DNA of 64,000 bases from an uncultured Alphaproteobacteria bacterium (GTDB lineage: Bacteria; Pseudomonadota; Alphaproteobacteria; Rhizobiales; Xanthobacteraceae). Shown one piece after another: positions 46,345 through 62,408 of this stretch. The notes beneath the pieces were generated by a model that was not told where the DNA came from, searched no databases, and saw only the letters and a list, made by a program, of their open reading frames with translations. Within the stretch, counting starts at the first letter, position 1; each line of letters opens with the position of its first letter. The stretch covers positions 6,526-70,525 of the forward strand of contig CAWCSD010000024.1 in NCBI GenBank assembly GCA_963798095.1, given 5' to 3'. A program made the translations under genes and the position numbers.

Positions 46345-46541
46345 GGTGTCGCCCTCAATTCGCAATGCCGGCCGGGTCGCGCAACGCGTCGGCGGCCAAG
46401 CCAGACATTATTACCGGACATTATTATATGGCGCTTGGCGGGCGAGGATAGCGGCGTGGCCGGGCCGAACATTGCTTGGCGCAGGCCCCGTCGCTATGTT
46501 GCGGCGGCCGGCCCAGGCGGCCGGCGCCAATCCGACGGTAT

Positions 46542-46616
46542 TGGGGCGTAGCCAAGTGGTAAGGCAGCGGATTTTGATTCCGCCATTCCCTGGTTCGAAT
46601 CCAGGCGCCCCAGCCA
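46542..46616 (+). tRNA. tRNA-Gln (anticodon UUG), CCA encoded
   Basis: Cloverleaf read by hand. Acceptor TGGGGCG/CGCCCCA. Anticodon stem GCGGA/TCCGC with loop TT-TTG-AT. T arm CCTGG-TTCGAAT-CCAGG. Discriminator G plus CCA. Confidence 0.9.
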
Positions 46617-47009
46617 CGCAGTCTGGTCTCTAGGGGGTGTTTCCCACTCACAAGAATTAGCGCGACATTACCGCGAGTTAGCGAGACGTTGCGCGGTCTC
46701 TGCAGCTCAATTTTCCGGATTTTGAGCCACCACCGCTCAATTCCGCACGTCAGTCTCCGGTCGCCAATTTTCAATATCCGTGTTCTGGCTGTGGAGACTC
46801 GGTTCGACATCGCACGAGACCCGGTTCGAATTTGAATCATGCCGAATTAGTCAGCACGAATGAGTGCAATTCTGGCGCATCGACAACATCGGGCACGTAT
46901 GAGGTCGGCTGCGCGGCAAACGGTGCGAGTGCGCCAGCGGCTTGAAGCGGCGCAGTCGATTTGCAGTGATGCGCCGTAGCGTAGTAGCCCAGACTGCATT
47001 GGAGACCAT

Positions 47010-47249
47010 ATGCTTGGCATTCCACGTCGCTACAGCCACTTCGTCTTTGGGACTATTCAAGCAGGATTAACTTCGCTAATCGCCGCTGGGATTGCGAGCT
47101 TATCCTTCTCAGCTCAGGGGCACTTTTTAAGCCACTGGCTAGTGTCCTGGCTAATTTCATGGGCGGCAATGCTTCCCCTTGTGCTGTTTGCTGCTCCCTC
47201 CATTCGCGCCCTCTCGATCCTGCTTACGAAAGAGGAGCCAACCCATTGA
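47010..47249 (+). CDS. DUF2798-like small membrane protein
   Basis: 79 aa with two hydrophobic helices. The N-terminus (RRYSHFVFGTIQAGLTSLIAAGIAS) resembles DUF2798 from memory. Confidence 0.55.
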   Translation: MLGIPRRYSHFVFGTIQAGLTSLIAAGIASLSFSAQGHFLSHWLVSWLISWAAMLPLVLFAAPSIRALSILLTKEEPTH

Positions 47250-47396
47250 GGCACGATCCAGGGGCGATCAGTCCCCCATTCAGATTGTCACCCAGAAGTG
47301 ATGTCGACGCGACATGAATGTTATTTGCATTTAGCGAATGGCTGCCGCATCCAGGCCGCTCTTTATCGGTAAGGAACCGCGAAAAGGGGCGGACAC

Positions 47397-47804
47397 ATGT
47401 CAGCGCTGAACTCTGGTCGGCTCGCATTCGATGGCTTGCGGGTGGGCGAGCTCGCTCGGCCAGCGGCGGAGAAATTCGCGGGCGCGTGGCTTGCTTGCCT
47501 TCTTGTGATGGCACGAGGCAATATCTTTGCGGCGTTCAGTTACGAGCATATAGTGCTCGCCACAGTTTGCGGTTCTGTGGGCGCGGTGGTTACGGTTGCA
47601 CTTCTCCTCCAGATGGACCGGACAATTAACAGCGTGAGCCGCCAGGCGACACTCAGCGCAGTCGTGACGCTGGTCGGTGATGTGTTCGCACATCCATCGC
47701 ATTTTGGCCCCCAATGGGCGGAGCCGGTGGTCACTGCCGCTGTATCAGCTGCAATAGCGGTTGCGCTATGGTACGCAAAGCGGTGGTTGCGCGTAGCCAA
47801 CTGA
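47397..47804 (+). CDS. Hypothetical membrane protein
   Basis: 135 aa with 3-4 hydrophobic segments. No family recognised. Confidence 0.4.
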   Translation: MSALNSGRLAFDGLRVGELARPAAEKFAGAWLACLLVMARGNIFAAFSYEHIVLATVCGSVGAVVTVALLLQMDRTINSVSRQATLSAVVTLVGDVFAHPSHFGPQWAEPVVTAAVSAAIAVALWYAKRWLRVAN

Positions 47805-47869
47805 TGAGAAAAATCGCGGCCCCGGTTAGGTGATCGTAAGCTGACAATTCGGTGCAATAGGAGCCCATT

Positions 47870-48493
47870 ATGCCCAATATAACCATGCTGGACATCGAGG
47901 CGTTGCGGGCCACCAAGCTCAAACCGTATATCGACAAGTGTCTCGAACACCGCGCTCCCGATCCAGGCTTTCACGCTGTAATGGGTCACAACATCGATCT
48001 TTGCGAGGCGATGTTTGTGGCTTGGGACGCCTGCTTCAACAAGGGCAGCATTCCGCATAAGCTTAAAGAGATCATTCGCGTGCAACTCTCGCGCGCCGCG
48101 TCCTGCACTTATTGAGGCAATGTTCGGTCTGCTTCGGCGAAGCGACAGGGACTGTCGGAAGCGCTACTCGACGAAGGCATCGACAATTATGCCGCGAGCG
48201 AGCGCTTTACGCCGGCCGAGAAGATTGCGCTGCGTTACAGCGAGATGATGTCGGTCAATCCTGGCGCGGTCGACGCCGCGTTGTTCGATGAGCTGCGGCA
48301 CCACTACAGCGACGACGAGATCGTCGAGCTTGGCGCCTTCATCGGCTTTAACCTCGGCTATCACACGTTCTTCGGCACACTAAAATTCTATCCGCTGTTT
48401 TCGCCCGACGGCCGGCTCGTGAGCCAAGCCGAATCGGAGAAGCTCTACGGTGCGGCGCCTGTCTCGCTCGGCAAAACGGAGGCGGCAGAATGA
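47870..48493 (+). CDS. AhpD/carboxymuconolactone-decarboxylase-family protein with one in-frame TGA at 48113..48115 (Sec candidate or nonsense pseudogene)
   Basis: ORFs 47870..48115 and 48245..48493 share one frame, and 48116..48244 has no other stop. The read-through product has ...RAAS-C-T-Y-[TGA]-GNVRS..., so the TGA replaces the second Cys of CxxC. Confidence 0.65.
48131..48162 (+). other. Stem-loops 16-47 nt downstream of the in-frame TGA (candidate bacterial SECIS)
   Basis: GCTTCG-g-CGAAGC (48131..48143). CGACAG-gga-CTGTCG (48143..48157). An outer pairing GCTTC (48131-35) with GAAGC (48158-62) is possible. G-containing apical loops. Confidence 0.3.
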
Positions 48494-49044
48494 CCTACAT
48501 TGCGCCGCTGCCAATGGAGGCTATCGCCGATCCCGAGCTGCGCGCGCTCATGGCCGAAGCTGAGGTACTCGGCGTGCCTGACGATTTGTTTCCACGCATC
48601 GTCGCCCGCGCGCCGGAGCAAGCGGTGCCGCTGATGCGCGCGCTCATCATGAGCCACACGAAGGGCAATGTCGATCACACGCTCAAGGAGATCATGCGAA
48701 TTCTTTTGGCGCGCTTCGCCAGCGACAGATATTTCGCCGGCCTGCGCTCAAACAAGGCCCGCGCCATGGGCTTGACGGAAGCGCGCATCGACGACGGCTG
48801 CTTTGCCTACGAGGACGAATCAAAGAGCTTCGGCGCCGCCGAAATATGTGCGCTGCGCTATGCCGATCTGATGTTTCTCGATGCCAATCAAATCGACAGC
48901 GCGTTCTACGATGAGATGAAGAAGCACTGGAGCGAAGCGCAAATCATGGAACTCGGCGCCTTCATCGCTTTCCACTATGGCATGCAGATGTTCATGCGCT
49001 CTCTAGGCGCTGTTCCGCGTCAAATCTCTGATCGATCTCGGTAG
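48490..49044 (+). CDS. AhpD/CMD-family paralogue without the CxxC motif
   Basis: ATGA overlap with the upstream gene. ARFASDRYFAGLRS aligns with SRAASCTY*GNVRS. The C-terminal EIMELGAFIAFHYG is equivalent to EIVELGAFIGFNLG. Confidence 0.75.
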   Translation: MTYIAPLPMEAIADPELRALMAEAEVLGVPDDLFPRIVARAPEQAVPLMRALIMSHTKGNVDHTLKEIMRILLARFASDRYFAGLRSNKARAMGLTEARIDDGCFAYEDESKSFGAAEICALRYADLMFLDANQIDSAFYDEMKKHWSEAQIMELGAFIAFHYGMQMFMRSLGAVPRQISDRSR

Positions 49045-49097
49045 CTTTGTTGAGTAATTCCTCGGCGATTTTCTGAAGTTGTTGCTTTAGCCGGACT

Positions 49098-49452
49098 TCA
49101 GAGCATTGCCGTCGCGAAAGTCATGATCGTACAGGCGTTGTGCAGGTACTCGTCGATCAGCTTGTTGTAGAGGCGGACGCGATGCGCGGGCCAATGGCGT
49201 CTTCGGCATCAGCGGCGGATCGGGAAGTGCCTCGTCGATGTAATAAAGGATCAGCGAGGACTCGATGATGACATTGCCGTCGTGAACCAGTGTCGGCACC
49301 ACGCCGTTCGGATTGAGCTTCATATAAGCAGGGTCGTTCTGGTCGCCCTGCAACGTGAGCAGATGCTCTTTGATCTGCTGGTCCTTTTCGAAGAGCGCGA
49401 TCCGAACCTTCTGGGCGCAGACCGAGTTAATATTGTGATAAAGCTCGAGCAT
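49098..49452 (-). pseudogene. Glutathione S-transferase remnant (frameshifted, C-terminal domain missing)
   Basis: The thioredoxin-like N domain is intact (LELYHNINSVCAQKVRIAL...NPNGVVPTLVHDGNVIIESSLILYYID). After ...PLARA the homology continues in another frame (HRVRLYNKLIDEYLHNAC) and stops at 49098. Confidence 0.65.
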
Positions 49453-49504
49453 GCGTCCTCCTTTAAATGTTTTCTTGTGAGTTCGGTCGATTGCCGCCTG
49501 GCGC

Positions 49505-50479
49505 CTAGGCCGCCAATCTTGCGCGATCGTGCGGTTGACCGAAATCGACCGGTGTTCCCTTTGGGATGATCATTGTCGGGTTCACTTTGGCGATCGAATA
49601 GTAATTGATGACGTAGTAGCGCGGCGTCACCGTCGCGGCGACACCCGGCACCTGATAGAGCTCGCGCATATAGTTCGAAAGGTTCGGATAGTCGGCGATG
49701 CGCTGCCGATTGCATTTGAACAGCGAGAAATAAGCGACGTCGAAGCGCACCAGAGTGGGAAACAGTCGCCAATCCGCCTCGGTGATCTGATCGCCGACCA
49801 GATAGCGTTGACGGGACAGCCTATTCTCGATCCAGTCGAGCGTCGCAAAAAGCCCGTCATAGGCTTCCTCGTAGGCCGCCTGGCTCTTGGCGAAGCCGGC
49901 GCGATAGACGCCATTATTGACGTCGCGATAGATGCGTTCGTTGACGGCGTCGATCTCCGCCCGCAGGCTGACCGGATAGAAGTCGGCGCGATCGCCGGTG
50001 AAGTCGTTGAACTCGGAATTGAACATCCGAATGATCTCGGAGGACTCGTTATTGACGATGCGCCCGGTCGTCCTGTCCCAAAGGGTCGGGACGGTGACCT
50101 TGCCGGTGTAATTTGGATTGCTCGCGACGTAGGCTTCGTAGAGATACTGGAAGCCGTTCACTTCATCGGGAATGCAATCCGGATAGCGCGGATCGCGCGC
50201 GAAGGTCCATCCCTTCTGCTTGAGCCCCGGCACCGCGTAGGCCACCGAGACGATGTTTTCGAGCTTCTTGAGCGCGCGATAGATCAGCGTCCGGTGCGCC
50301 CAGGGGCAGCCGTGCGCTACATAGAGATGGTAGCGGCCGGGCTCGGCTTTGAAGCCCGACGAACCGTCGGCGCTGATGCGGTCGCGAAAAACGCTGTCGG
50401 CCCGCTTGAACTGTCCGCTTTTCCCGGTCTCCTCCGGCAGCTCGCCGTCGGTCCACTTGCCTTGGATTACAACGCCCAT
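49505..50479 (-). CDS. yqjG: Glutathionyl-hydroquinone reductase (Xi-class GST)
   Basis: 324 aa, uninterrupted. Hallmark GRYHLYVAHGCPWAHRTL, VPTLWD and NGVYRAGFA. Confidence 0.88.
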   Translation of the reverse strand: MGVVIQGKWTDGELPEETGKSGQFKRADSVFRDRISADGSSGFKAEPGRYHLYVAHGCPWAHRTLIYRALKKLENIVSVAYAVPGLKQKGWTFARDPRYPDCIPDEVNGFQYLYEAYVASNPNYTGKVTVPTLWDRTTGRIVNNESSEIIRMFNSEFNDFTGDRADFYPVSLRAEIDAVNERIYRDVNNGVYRAGFAKSQAAYEEAYDGLFATLDWIENRLSRQRYLVGDQITEADWRLFPTLVRFDVAYFSLFKCNRQRIADYPNLSNYMRELYQVPGVAATVTPRYYVINYYSIAKVNPTMIIPKGTPVDFGQPHDRARLAA

Positions 50480-50551: not shown

Positions 50552-51186
50552 ATGGCGAGGCAATTTGGCATGCCGCGACCGCGGGAGTTCGACGAAACTG
50601 CGGCGCTCGATGCAGCGATCGAGTGCTTTTGGCGTCGCGGCTATGAGGCGACGTCGCTGCGCGACCTTACTGCAGCGATGGGGCTGACGGCGCCGAGCCT
50701 TTACAACGCCTTCGGCGACAAGGAGGAACTGTTCGCGCTCGCGCTCGAGCGCTATCTCGATAGCAACACGCGCGGCCGGCTGCGCCGTCTCGAGGAGACG
50801 CTTGCGCCCAAGCAGGCGATCGCGCGATTTTTCGCGGGAGATCGTCGAGCACTCGGTGAACGATCGACAGCGCAAAGGGTGTTTCTTGGTCAACTCGGCG
50901 CTCGAGATTGCGCCGCATCATGCGCAATGCCGCGCCGTCATCGCCAGGCAGTTCCAGGGCATCGAGGGATTCTTCGCGAGGTGCATTCTCGCGGCTCAAG
51001 CCGAAGGAACGGTCCCGCTCGAGGTCGACGCAGACGACGTCGCTAAGCTCCTTGTTAGGCGTGCTGCTCGGCGTGCGCGTGCTGGCGCGCACAAATCCGA
51101 GCCGTGGCGTGCTCGAGGGCATCGTGCGCCCTGCGCTCGCACTGCTCGACCCGCCGCACCACGGTCAAAAGAGAGGAAAGCGATGA
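50552..51186 (+). pseudogene. TetR-family regulator, two frameshifts
   Basis: The HTH (AAIECFWRRGYEATSLRDLTAAMGLTAPSLYNAFGDKEELF) is in frame 1. REIVEHSVNDRQRKGCFLVNSALE... is in frame 2 from about 50830. LGVLLGVRVLARTNPSRGVLEGIV... is in frame 3 from about 51050. Confidence 0.7.
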
Positions 51187-51888
51187 TCGACCTTTATTAT
51201 TGGACGACCCCGAACGGCCACAAGATCACGATCTTCCTCGAAGAGGCACGGGCTTGCCCTATCGGATCGTGCCGGTCAATATCAGCAAGGGCGAGCAGTT
51301 TAAGCCGGAATTCCTAGCGATTTCGCCGAACAATCGCATGCCCGCGATCGTCGATCGATGCGCCGAAGGACGGTGGCTACCCGGTTTCGGTTTTCGAATC
51401 CGGCGCCATCCTCGTCTATCTCGCCGAGAAGACCGGCAAGTATCTGCCGACCGGACTTTCGCGAGCCGCAGTCGCGTCATGGAATGGCTGTTCTGGCAGA
51501 TGGCCGGGCTCGGGCCGATGGCAGGCCAGAACCATCACTTCTCGCAATATGCGCCGGAAAAGATCCCCTACGCGATCGAGCGCTACGTCAAAGAGACGAA
51601 CCGCCTATATGGCGTGCTCAACAAGCGACTCGCGGATCATGAATTCGTCGCCGGCCGACTATTCGATCGCCGATATGGCGGCCTATCCCTGGATCGTCCC
51701 TTATGAGCGGCAGGGCCAGAAGCTCGAAGATTTTCCGAATCTGAAGCGCTGGTTCGAAGCGATGCGCGACGCGGCCGGCGGTCAAGCGCGCCTACGCGCG
51801 GGCCAAGGAGATCAATACAACGCCGACGGTCAGCGAGGAATCGAAGAGGATCCTCTTCGGCCAGACAGCGGCCGTGGCCGCTCGCTGA
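51183..51888 (+). pseudogene. YfcG-like glutathione S-transferase, five frameshifts
   Basis: Collinear with E. coli YfcG as I recall it: MIDLYYWTTPNGHKITIFLEEA | GLPYRIVPVNISKGEQFKPEFLAISPNNRMPAIVDR | DAPKDGGYPVSVFESGAILVYLAEKTGKYLP | SRVMEWLFWQMAGLGPMAGQNHHF...FVAG | DYSIADMAAYPW... | RPAVKRAY...AAR*. The frame order is 0,2,0,2,0,1. Confidence 0.75.
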
Positions 51889-51906
51889 GCCGACGTGCAA
51901 AACCGA

Positions 51907-52602
51907 ATGACACTGCGTCTCTACGATCTCGCCGGCGCCGATCCGGATCGGCGTTTCAGCCCATATTGCTGGCGCACACGGCTCGCCCTGGCGCACAAGA
52001 GAGCTTACGGTCGAAACCGATCCCGTGGCGCTTTACCGAAAAGGCGGCGATCGCCCCGTCGGGCCAAGGCGTTCGTCCCGGTCCTGGTCGACGGCGATCG
52101 TTGGATCGCCGATTCCTGGACCATCGCGAACTATCTCGAAGACACCTATCCCGATCGCCCGTCTCTGTTGGCGGTACCGCCGCCGGCGAGACCTGACCCG
52201 CTTCTATTCGATCCTCGCCGACGCGTCTGGTCAGCGGCGATTTTTCCGTTCATCGCGCTCGATATCCTGCGGCATCGTCGCACGGACAAGGATCGCGACT
52301 ATTTCCGCACCAGCCGCGAAAAGCGCGTCGGCATGACGCTGGAGGCATTCGTCGCCGACCGCGAGGCGAAGCTTCCCGCCTTTCGCGCCAGCCTCACGCC
52401 GCTGCGTCTCACGCTGAAGCGCAGCCGTTCTTCGGCGGCGACGAGCCGCTCTATGCCGACTATGCCGTGTTCGGCCCATTCCAATGGGCACGCTGCATCA
52501 GCCCGTTCGCGCTGCTGGACGAGGACGATCCGGTCAGGCTGTGGCGCGATCGCTTGCTCGATCGTTTCGACGGCGCTGGCGCGCAAGTCCGCCGGCCTAT
52601 GA
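51907..52602 (+). pseudogene. Glutathione S-transferase, at least five frameshifts
   Basis: The segments MTLRLYDLAGADPDRRFSPYCWRTRLALAHK, IPWRFTEKAAIAPSGQG, VPVLVDGDRWIADSWTIANYLEDTYPDRPSL, LTRFYSILADASGQ, ...DRDYFRTSREKRVGMTLEAF... and QPFFGGDEPLYADYAVFGPFQWARCISPF... alternate between frames. Confidence 0.6.
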
Positions 52603-52645: not shown

Positions 52646-53304
52646 ATGTCCCTGAAAGAACAGCTCGCCGAATATCGCGCCGGCTGGTTCAAGCGCGTTC
52701 CGGCGGAACGGCAAGCCGATCATGGAGCGCCACATCGAGCAGCTTCGCAACGGTCTCGCGAAGACGGCCCTGAAGGCAGGCGATCGCGCGCCGTCGATCG
52801 TACTCGTGCAACGCCAAGGGCGAAACCGTCGACGTCGGTGCACTCTTGAGGAAAGGACCGGTCATCGTCACCTTCTATCGCGGCGGCTGGTGCCCGTACT
52901 GCAACCTTGAACTGCAGGCGTTCCAGCAGGTCCTGCCCGAGATCGAGGCAGCAGGCGCATCGCTGGTGGCGATCAGCCCCGAAAAGCCCGACGACACGCT
53001 GTCGACCGCGGAGAAAAACGCGCTCACCTTCGAAGTGCTGAGCGATGTCGGCCAGAAGGTCGGCCGCGCGTTCGGGCTGGTCTATGATTTCAGCGATGAG
53101 CTGAAATGCGCTTACAAGGAGTTCGGCCTGGACATTCCCGGCAAGAAATGCGCGCCGGTGAATGGGCGTTGCCGATTTCGGCCACCTACGTCATCGACCG
53201 CGACGGCTCCATCGTCTATGCCTATACGGATGCGGATTATCGCGATCGGCGGGAGAACCCCAAGTGTCCTAGCGGTGCTAATGCGAAATGCCGCCGCAGC
53301 GTAA
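52646..53304 (+). pseudogene. Peroxiredoxin-like (AhpC/TSA family) protein, at least four frameshifts
   Basis: MSLKEQLAEYRAGWFKRVPAERQA | MERHIEQLRNGLAKTALKAGDRAPSIVL | KGPVIVTFYRGGWCPYCNLELQAF...GLDIPGK | GEWALPISATYVIDRDGSIVYAYTDADYRDR | PSVLAVLMRNAAAA*. The last two shifts compensate for each other. Confidence 0.7.
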
Positions 53305-53361
53305 GGCTGCTAGACGACTTCCAGCCACGGGCGCTTCGCTTCCGCTTATCGTGCGGACAAT

Positions 53362-53775
53362 ATGGGCCGTGATCCGTTGGATATACTATATGCCTCAGGC
53401 GCGTCATATGCGGTAAATCTTGCTGGAGACCGGTTCGAACTCTGGCACCCTGGCAGCCAGTTCAGCCGGGAGGTGCACACGGCCTTTCTGTCGGCTGGAA
53501 CCGCAAAAAGTCTCCGGTCGCGGTTCGTTCCGATATTGCGGGAATTTCGGGCCATATTTAGAAGGCCAGATCCCAAATTGAGCATTGGCGGTTCGAATCT
53601 CGCCAGGGCAACGCGCGAGATGCTCGGTGCGGTTGGCGGCGCTGCCGTCAATTACGCCTTTGTCGAGCATTTTCAGGAGATGGCGCGAGGTCATTTCACC
53701 GTTCGCCGGCTCGAACGAGTCTACGGCAAGGCCGTTGTCCGGACCGAATATGAGCGCCTGGCGCAAAACCGCTGA
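53362..53775 (+). CDS. Hypothetical protein (137 aa)
   Basis: Open frame only; no recognisable motif. May be a fragment. Confidence 0.3.
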   Translation: MGRDPLDILYASGASYAVNLAGDRFELWHPGSQFSREVHTAFLSAGTAKSLRSRFVPILREFRAIFRRPDPKLSIGGSNLARATREMLGAVGGAAVNYAFVEHFQEMARGHFTVRRLERVYGKAVVRTEYERLAQNR

Positions 53776-60835: not shown

Positions 60836-62408
60836 GTGGCCAAGAACATCCTCATCTTTTCAGACGGGACTGGCATGGCGGGCGGGATCACGTTCGACGA
60901 GGACCGCACCAATATCGTACAAGCTCTACCGCGCCACACGCTGCGGCCCAGATAGTTGCGTACATCCCGATCGACAGGTCGCCTTTTACGACCCAGGATT
61001 AGGATCTCCCGCCGATGGCGGATTTATTTTCGGCAAAGCCGGGCGATGGGCATACAATCTTGCCGCGCAAGCAACCGGACTGGGGATAACGGCCAATATC
61101 ATTGATTGTTACGCGGCCCTGATTCGCCTCTATCGAGACGGGGACCGAATATTTTTGTTCGGATTTAGCCGCGGGGCCTACACTGTTCGATGTTTGGGCG
61201 CTGTTATCGCTTTGTGCGGGATTCCGCGCCATCTGTCTGGCGGCCGGCCGCTGTCGCTCGATGTCGCAGGTTCGCGCGATCTGCAACTGATGCGGTCACT
61301 AACGTCTATCAGTTTTGCTCCTCAAAGCCCCGCAAGACGCCGGGCTCATATCGCAACTTCATGCTCGACACTCGCGCCGCAATCGCCGCTAGGTTCCGGC
61401 AAGAGCACGGGTCGGCCGATCCTGCCGATCCTCAAAAGCAAGCGTATATCCCTATTTCATCGGGGTTTTCGACACTGTCGCGGCTCTCGGCCGGCTAGGT
61501 GCTGTAGTCGGACTGATGCTTGCCCTGGGCGGCGTGTTGGCCGGAATCAGTTATTGGATTTCATTACTCGCCGGACTTGCTGACGCTCGAGGCTTCGGCT
61601 GGCTGGCTTATTGCACGTTCGCGAATATTGCCGTGTTGCTATTTGGGAGCAGCCATTAGCGTCGGCGTGATCTCCTATGTCTTCAACTACTTGAAGTTAG
61701 ACTTTCGTGTTCCCGGCTATGGGTTACTAAAACGGCTTGCCACTATACACCTCGCGCCACACCAAGCATACGTTTGCCGACTATACCCTCAACGTCAACG
61801 TAACCTACGCGAAGCACGCTATCTCGATCGACGAGAACCGCAAGGACTTCAAACGGGTTATTTGGGTGCCTGATGAGACCAAAATTGACACCCGCGATGC
61901 CGAAAGAAATCTTTACTTCGAGCAGGTGTGGTTTCCTGGTGTCCACGCTGACATCGGCGGAGGCTATTCAGAAAACGAAGCCAGGCTGTCAGATGTGACA
62001 TTGGGATGGATGCTGGCGGCAGCATCCATCATTCCCAACGGCATTCATTACGACGAACCGGTTCTTAGACGTTACGGGGACCCAACAGGGCCGCAACACG
62101 ACGAGTGCAAGGCCGGCCATTGGCAATCTGCTGTTCGGCCGCTGCCAACCGACAAGAATGATCATCTCAGCCGAGCGACAATGCATCATTCAGTCTATGC
62201 ACGGTTCGCGGCCAGCTCCGTGCTTCTCTATGATCGTCTCGGCCCTTATCGGCCGACAAATCTCGCGTGCCATGTGGATTTTCAGCACTATTACGATGCC
62301 AAAAGGAAGCCGCCAGTCGAACCGCAATTTGTTGCCGACAACATAGAATTAAAGTGGGAACATAAGCGGCAAGCTACTGCCGCCGCTGCCGGTGAACATG
62401 GAACATAG
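60836..62408 (+). pseudogene. DUF2235 (Tle1-like alpha/beta hydrolase/phospholipase) gene, at least five frameshifts
   Basis: The pieces lie in alternating frames: VAKNILIFSDGTGMAGG; YKLYRATR...FYDPGLGS...; FLFGFSRGAYTVRCLGAVI (nucleophile GFSRG); ...YFIGVFDTVAALG; ...VWFPGVHADIGGGY... Confidence 0.7.

Follow-up and report, generated by a model that had tools for sequence, protein, structure and literature searches.

The reading frame at positions 47870..48493 of the window, by which we mean the whole 64-kb stretch of DNA that was analyzed, very probably encodes a predicted 207-residue AhpD-like selenoprotein (CMD-fold, COG2128-type), in which an in-frame UGA at 48113..48115 would be decoded as selenocysteine (Sec) by means of a downstream hairpin. 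An earlier note on this DNA had proposed a CxxU protein of the AhpD/CMD family with a SECIS element downstream of the UGA, and the proposal is now supported by the conservation of both UGA and hairpin, by the selection acting on the gene, by linkage to sel genes in relatives and by homology to CxxC proteins. The features are as follows.

47859..47863, + strand: Shine-Dalgarno-like AGGAG, a putative ribosome-binding site 6 nt 5' of the ATG of the selenoprotein gene, identified from the sequence.
47870..48493, + strand: predicted AhpD-like (CMD-domain) selenoprotein gene, 207 codons including Sec82, with its own stop TGA at 48491..48493.
48104..48115, + strand: redox motif C79-T-Y-U82 (TGC ACT TAT TGA); C79 and Y81 are invariant, and the motif aligns with CAYC of PA0269.
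48113..48115, + strand: UGA predicted to be read as selenocysteine (Sec82).
48127..48146, + strand: predicted SECIS hairpin, GGC loop at 48136..48138, 11-nt spacer after the UGA, local fold of -8.0 kcal/mol.
48131..48142, + strand: hairpin core GCT TCG GCG AAG (codons A88 S89 A90 K91), with zero synonymous variation in 81 distinct sequences.
48490..49044, + strand: paralogue (34% identity), in which D and F align with C79 and U82 and whose start overlaps the preceding gene (ATGA).
49047..49068, + strand: weak terminator-like hairpin with a T-run, 3 nt after the paralogue stop, a low-confidence call from a consensus scan only.

Translation of 47870..48493 yielded 207 sense codons and a terminal stop, with exactly one internal stop, the TGA at 48113..48115, in the context ...LSRAAS-C-T-Y-(stop)-G-N-V-R-S. 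It likewise bore out the earlier observations that the ORFs 47870..48115 and 48245..48493 share one frame, that the 129 nt between them contain no other stop and that the single in-frame TGA occupies the second position of a CxxC-type motif (C-T-Y-TGA). The terminal TGA of the gene overlaps the ATG of the paralogue at 48490..49044 (ATGA). Since a TGA terminates the selenoprotein gene at 48491..48493, this codon is an ordinary stop in this genome.

The read-through protein matched the Pfam CMD domain (PF02627) with 29.4 bits at a cut-off of 23, and this domain spans the UGA. A search of the PDB matched PA0269 of Pseudomonas aeruginosa (2ijc, 2o4d; E = 6e-12), in which the second Cys of the CAYC motif aligns with U82, while the Bmp8 debrominase (6ohi, E = 1e-9) and several 'peroxidase-related' AhpD-core proteins also matched. 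Both results agree with the earlier assignment to a CMD/AhpD family carrying its CxxC redox pair at the TGA. E67, C79, Y81 and R86 were invariant in the alignment of homologues. Of the curated models, those that scored highest with the two genes were NCBIfam NF053654 ('YciW-related (seleno)protein'; cut-off 310 bits), to which the Sec gene matched with 64.2 bits and the paralogue with 36.3 bits, and TIGR01926 ('peroxidase-related enzyme'; cut-off 81.8 bits), with a score of 38.7 bits; PMC13188914 cites TIGR01926 for its 'AhpD-like protein'. Because no NCBIfam model reaches its cut-off, annotation pipelines call a pseudogene or two hypothetical proteins at such loci.

Alignment of orthologues at the TGA column, a check suggested at the outset, revealed a TGA at the position of U82 in all 161 homologous loci and conservation of the downstream hairpin. 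These loci derived from Alpha- and Betaproteobacteria and from marine metagenomes, with identities down to about 58%, and comprised the window, 80 genome loci (TGA in 81/81 together with the window) and 80 metagenome loci (80/80). The genome loci were kept from 271 found in a scan of species-representative genomes; they were 69-92% identical and included Xanthobacteraceae, Pseudolabrys, the cultured Rhodoplanes tepidamans DSM 9987 and many Burkholderiales. The metagenome scan, for which a marine-type homologue served as the query, contributed the 80 further loci. Compared with the nearest relatives, dN/dS was 0.03-0.07 before the TGA and 0.08-0.13 after it, and the low values past the TGA indicate that the downstream part is translated in frame. 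Between the window and locus L001, dN/dS was 0.06-0.08 at a dS of 0.39-0.63.

Two further observations were made on these loci. Values of dS relative to L001-L013 were 0.39-0.88 after the UGA, approximately half of the 0.63-1.87 before it, and the 12-nt core of the hairpin alone is too small to account for this reduction. In addition, one contig of Aquabacter sp. (CBDIHQ010000013.1) carried two Sec cassettes (L027 and L028) about 40 kb apart, both of them with TGA and hairpin.

In the window, the hairpin consists of the lower pairs G48127-C48146, U48128-A48145 and C48129-G48144, followed by a bulged U48130 and an upper stem of five pairs that runs from G48131-C48143 through C-G, U-A and U-A to C48135-G48139. 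Its 12-nt core (48131..48142, GCTTCGGCGAAG) was without synonymous change across 81 genomes. The other degenerate codons of the gene generally vary synonymously, and codons 88-91 were the only ones that showed no such variation among the 81 distinct gene sequences. Of all 161 sequences, 159 share the core exactly; in one of the remaining two, AAG>AGG leaves the pair in place as U-G. The RNAalifold consensus displayed a 6-bp stem with a GGC loop over the core codons, and the loop read GGC in 160 of the 161 sequences. For the 80 distinct 48-mers, 97% of the cells were paired, a value matched by none of 500 shuffles, while slid registers reached at most 64%. Local folding produced a hairpin in every sequence, with energies from -5.3 to -13.3 kcal/mol, a few relatives having only -5.3 kcal/mol.

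Closer examination of the individual pairs in the 161 sequences revealed a true double change between columns 18 and 32 (C-G 89, U-A 40, U-G 32, C-A 0), while columns 19 and 31 (G-C 155, G-U 4, G-G 2) and columns 21 and 29 (U-A 160, U-G 1) were nearly constant; most stem pairs are invariant, and the structural support consists of this invariance plus the one covarying pair, which tracks phylogeny. Column 18 corresponds to the bulged U48130 in the window. The position of the bulged U differs by lineage: copies from Alphaproteobacteria have it in column 18, the others in column 16. The bSECIS model specifies an apical loop of 3-9 nt, an upper stem of 4-16 bp, a G in the first two loop positions, a UGA-to-loop distance of 16-37 nt and an energy of at most -7.5 kcal/mol (PMC13188914). 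The window hairpin falls inside all of these ranges, with its GGC loop, an upper stem of 5 bp (8 bp with the bulged U), a distance of 20 nt and an energy of -8.0 kcal/mol, and the expectation that its distance suits a bacterial SECIS was correct.

On the other hand, folding of 48113..48175 alone, a further check that had been suggested, did not single out the element: the energy was not unusual (z = -0.31) and the conserved hairpin was outside the 60-nt minimum-energy fold. The significance of hairpin and TGA is owed to the comparison with homologues and not to single-sequence folding. A search of Rfam retrieved no SECIS family, either at the gathering threshold or with E relaxed to 10; a chance match to a Tombusvirus element (E = 4.2) was all that it returned. 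Among the stem-loops listed in the earlier note, GCTTCG/CGAAGC at 48131..48143, which begins at the 16th nt after the TGA, turned out to be conserved and was extended to 48127..48146. The adjacent CGACAG-gga-CTGTCG at 48143..48157 is present in the window but not conserved in relatives; as a second hairpin of the element it was rejected, since the RNAalifold consensus does not contain it and its pairing is disrupted in most relatives, and the optional outer GCTTC/GAAGC pairing was found to be peculiar to the window sequence. A reading of GC-UUCG-GC as a UUCG tetraloop was also discarded, as it reached -1.2 kcal/mol versus -8 to -10 kcal/mol for the hairpin with the GGC loop.

The paralogue was located directly downstream of the Sec gene in 150 of the 151 loci with enough sequence, usually with an overlap of 4 or 1 nt, and one locus was fused; fused products of the Sec gene and the paralogue also occur in the databases (P0004, P0012). 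The alignment and the ATGA overlap agreed with the earlier description of the paralogue in the window as translationally coupled and as having D and F where the Sec gene has C and U. Judged by these substitutions in its sequence, the paralogue is probably a non-catalytic structural partner subunit in a hetero-oligomer, and we infer that it is co-translated with the Sec protein to form an assembly with one selenol/thiol centre per pair.

The mechanism that we propose would begin with a ribosome paused at the UGA at 48113..48115, to which the hairpin at 48127..48146, with its GGC loop and bulged U 11 nt after the UGA, would recruit SelB-GTP-Sec-tRNA(Sec), so that the codon would be decoded as selenocysteine. 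The conserved peptide S-A-S-A-K would be largely dictated by the RNA of this hairpin. C79-x-x-U82 would constitute a redox centre at the position of the AhpD-type CxxC, and the product would most likely cycle between the selenol/thiol and selenenylsulfide states as an oxidoreductase of the peroxidase or disulfide type; reduction of peroxides or disulfides is the default role for the CMD/AhpD fold. The translationally coupled, redox-dead paralogue would be its probable structural partner.

No selA, selB, selD or tRNA-Sec was detected within the 64-kb window, in which the one tRNA is a tRNA-Gln. Among the 80 related genome loci, 15 had selA, selB or tRNA-Sec within 10 kb of the Sec gene (tRNA-Sec in 14, selA in 14 and selB in 15), and the matches at locus L016 scored 578 bits for selA (cut-off 268) and 430 bits for selB (cut-off 242). 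Seven alphaproteobacterial loci exhibited the order selC<-selB<-selA followed by Sec gene -> paralogue -> selD. At L016 (6010..12263), as well as at L018, L019, L020, L021, L024 and L025, tRNA-Sec, selB and selA are on one strand and the Sec gene, paralogue and selD on the other, forming a compact cluster of the machinery and one selenoprotein pair. The majority of relatives are also without sel genes within 10 kb, yet the UGA is kept. For the window's own genome, we infer Sec decoding from the sel linkage in relatives and from continued purifying selection on the gene sequence.

Nucleotide similarity to the relatives did not extend beyond 47829..49016, an interval that coincides exactly with the two-gene cassette, and the flanks consequently give no hint as to function. 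The cassette lies 1.25 kb 3' of the tRNA-Gln gene (46542..46616, + strand), where the GC content falls from approximately 0.65 to 0.56-0.59 (46500..50000), and may thus reside in island-like DNA. As described earlier, neighbouring genes are disrupted, namely a glutathione S-transferase (GST) fragment at 49087..49452, a split GST at 51104..52196 and a broken Prx-like gene at 52646..53372. The first of these (49016..49452, - strand) is reduced to the ORF 49087..49452 encoding the N-terminal domain, with the C-terminal part in other frames and stopping at the end of the cassette homology (about 49016), which suggests truncation either by the arrival of the cassette or by deletion. The second GST (+ strand) is split by a frameshift, and the Prx-like gene (AhpC/TSA, WCPYC; + strand) is spread over at least three frames. 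The large genes at 1-45 kb look intact, which places the decay, or assembly error, locally in the cluster of redox genes beside the cassette. An intact gene resembling GS-hydroquinone reductase and genes for TetR regulators were also found near the cassette. Further away, the ORF 61737..62408 (+ strand) resembles a T6SS Tle1-like phospholipase only over the C-terminal end of the catalytic domain (positions 199-286 of the 287 in the profile) and is probably another gene fragment.

These surroundings bear on the alternative that fares best, in which the family consists of true selenoproteins but this genome has lost the Sec machinery, leaving the cassette as an inactive relic that gives an 81-residue fragment. 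The window without sel genes or tRNA-Sec, the lower-GC DNA after the tRNA-Gln gene, the decayed neighbours and the lack of synteny with relatives outside 47829..49016 would all fit such a history. The cassette itself, however, is intact with respect to both genes, UGA, hairpin and ATGA coupling, the dN/dS and dS relative to L001 given above imply that any loss was very recent, and most relatives lack nearby sel genes in the same way while keeping the UGA. We regard a relic as improbable, and decoding of the UGA as Sec remains the preferred reading.

A recent nonsense mutation from TGC or TGT to TGA, which the earlier note had named as a real alternative and which would make the gene a pseudogene like its neighbours, has next to nothing left to recommend it. 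The truncated or frameshifted GST and Prx-like genes next to it are in keeping with such decay, as is an environmental fragment with TGC at the U82 codon. This fragment (L081, 78..497) is the sole Cys form that was found; it reads …CVF-C-GNVRSASAK, with TTT TGC for F-C, and stems from a 518-nt contig of 1.27x coverage in which the hairpin core GCTTCGGCGAAGC is still present. It could represent a recent change from Sec to Cys or read errors, and as a single record it is too weak to interpret. No full-length Cys form occurred among the best 120 protein matches. The mutation is refuted by the TGA shared by all 161 homologues from different classes, by the intact frame under purifying selection past the TGA and by the conserved hairpin, while identities of 58-92% exclude that the related loci are contaminating copies of one sequence.

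The public protein collections would seem at first sight to offer two other readings, as nearly all matches were either split products, consisting of the C-terminal 113-125 residues or of an N-terminal part ending in ...SCTY, or full-length entries with W at the TGA column. Frameshifted products of the Sec family were also present (P0007, P0011, P0092). The many split entries might be taken for two independent small proteins, one comprising the 81 N-terminal residues and the other initiated internally and covering the C-terminal part. This is extremely unlikely, as the internal starts vary among relatives (M, L or V at different residues), the stretch from the UGA to these starts (GNVRSASAKRQG) is invariant at the protein level and the CMD domain spans the UGA. 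Equally negligible is a reading of the UGA as Trp or another standard amino acid through codon reassignment or a suppressor, which would fit the W in database entries P0001, P0002, P0005, P0006 and P0008, but these are choices of the gene caller, TGA ends the selenoprotein gene itself where it overlaps the next start, tRNA-Sec, selA, selB and selD adjoin the gene in relatives, and the position is that of a catalytic Cys in homologues.

With the UGA read as Sec, an abundant family emerges that is systematically mis-annotated, its public entries being almost all divided into separate ORFs or given a W at the UGA. It can be recognized by CxYU-GNVRSASAK in the protein combined with the unvarying core GCUUCGGCGAAGC in the RNA. 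A cultured strain, Rhodoplanes tepidamans DSM 9987, carries the cassette and might serve as a host for experiments. That the Sec gene is constantly paired with an inactive paralogue, and that in some genomes selABC and selD flank the pair, hints at a hetero-oligomeric selenoenzyme, which is maybe the main use of Sec in these bacteria. Knowledge of how Sec is decoded is unchanged by these findings. FdhA has been reported as the sole selenoprotein of Alpha- and Betaproteobacteria, adjoining selABC (Zhang et al. 2006, PMC1794560). As a more tentative extension, which we consider possible though rather doubtful, the Sec subunit and its redox-dead paralogue would be an obligate two-gene module and, in some Alphaproteobacteria, the core of a self-contained selenocysteine island that could be transferred horizontally (selC-selB-selA followed by ahpD(U)-ahpD'-selD). 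Maintenance of Sec decoding in these Alpha- and Betaproteobacteria of soil and freshwater would then be due to the pair and not to formate dehydrogenase, and the window would contain a copy of the cassette that had landed, without the machinery genes, in an island associated with the tRNA-Gln gene.

Several known systems resemble the one described here. Zhang & Gladyshev predicted CxxU AhpD-like selenoproteins (COG2128) from the Sargasso Sea in 2005 (PMC1088965), AhpD-like selenoproteins ranked among the most abundant families in the GOS data in 2008 (PMC2398784), and the 'AhpD-like 1' family (COG2128/YciW type, CxxU) has been reviewed in PMC9312934 and PMC13188914. The remark that surveys had already reported Sec-bearing AhpD-like families was accurate, as 'AhpD-like 1' (CxxU) appears in the GOS supplement, and the window gene is a new soil member of this family already predicted as a selenoprotein in the 2008 GOS list. 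The 'AhpD-like 1' reads JCVI_READ_1510389 and JCVI_READ_1558542 (...SRAADCNYUGNVRSASAKQQGL...) have the same CxxU on a CMD/AhpD-type domain; the window protein is 58% identical to these reads over 195 residues and belongs to the same orthologous group. Most 'AhpD-like 1' reads from GOS have another local motif, ECEYUIRAH, and the window type is a minor subgroup. While the GOS members come from ocean metagenomes, the member in the window comes from a soil-type Xanthobacteraceae-like genome. In the cited papers on AhpD-like 1 we found no description of the downstream paralogue, of the position in a sel cluster (selABC/selD) or of the invariant 13-nt hairpin core.

PA0269 and related CMD proteins with CxxC, as well as Bmp8, share the CMD fold with the window protein at the level of sequence, with CAYC in place of CTYU. 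They have Cys where the window protein has Sec, comprise about 145-195 residues and are of low identity to it, and we know of no paired inactive paralogue for PA0269 and the related CxxC proteins. The core motif of AhpD of the Mycobacterium tuberculosis type is E-x11-C-x2-C-x3-H. Its helix-borne C-x-x-C with a Glu 12 residues upstream has a counterpart in E67 and C79 of the window protein, both invariant. In contrast, where the M. tuberculosis protein has a His, at the fourth residue past the second Cys, the window protein has the invariant Arg86. The similarity of AhpD entries to the window protein is marginal (6k40, E = 0.033), and a function linked to lipoamide or AhpC is not implied. Lastly, the SECIS of E. 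coli fdhF comprises a 17-nt mini-helix with a bulged U17 and G23/U24. It shares with the window hairpin the 11-nt spacer, a short upper stem-loop, a bulged U on the 5' side and a G at the start of the loop, while the window hairpin has a GGC triloop in place of the GGUC-type loop of fdhF and the two sequences are unrelated.
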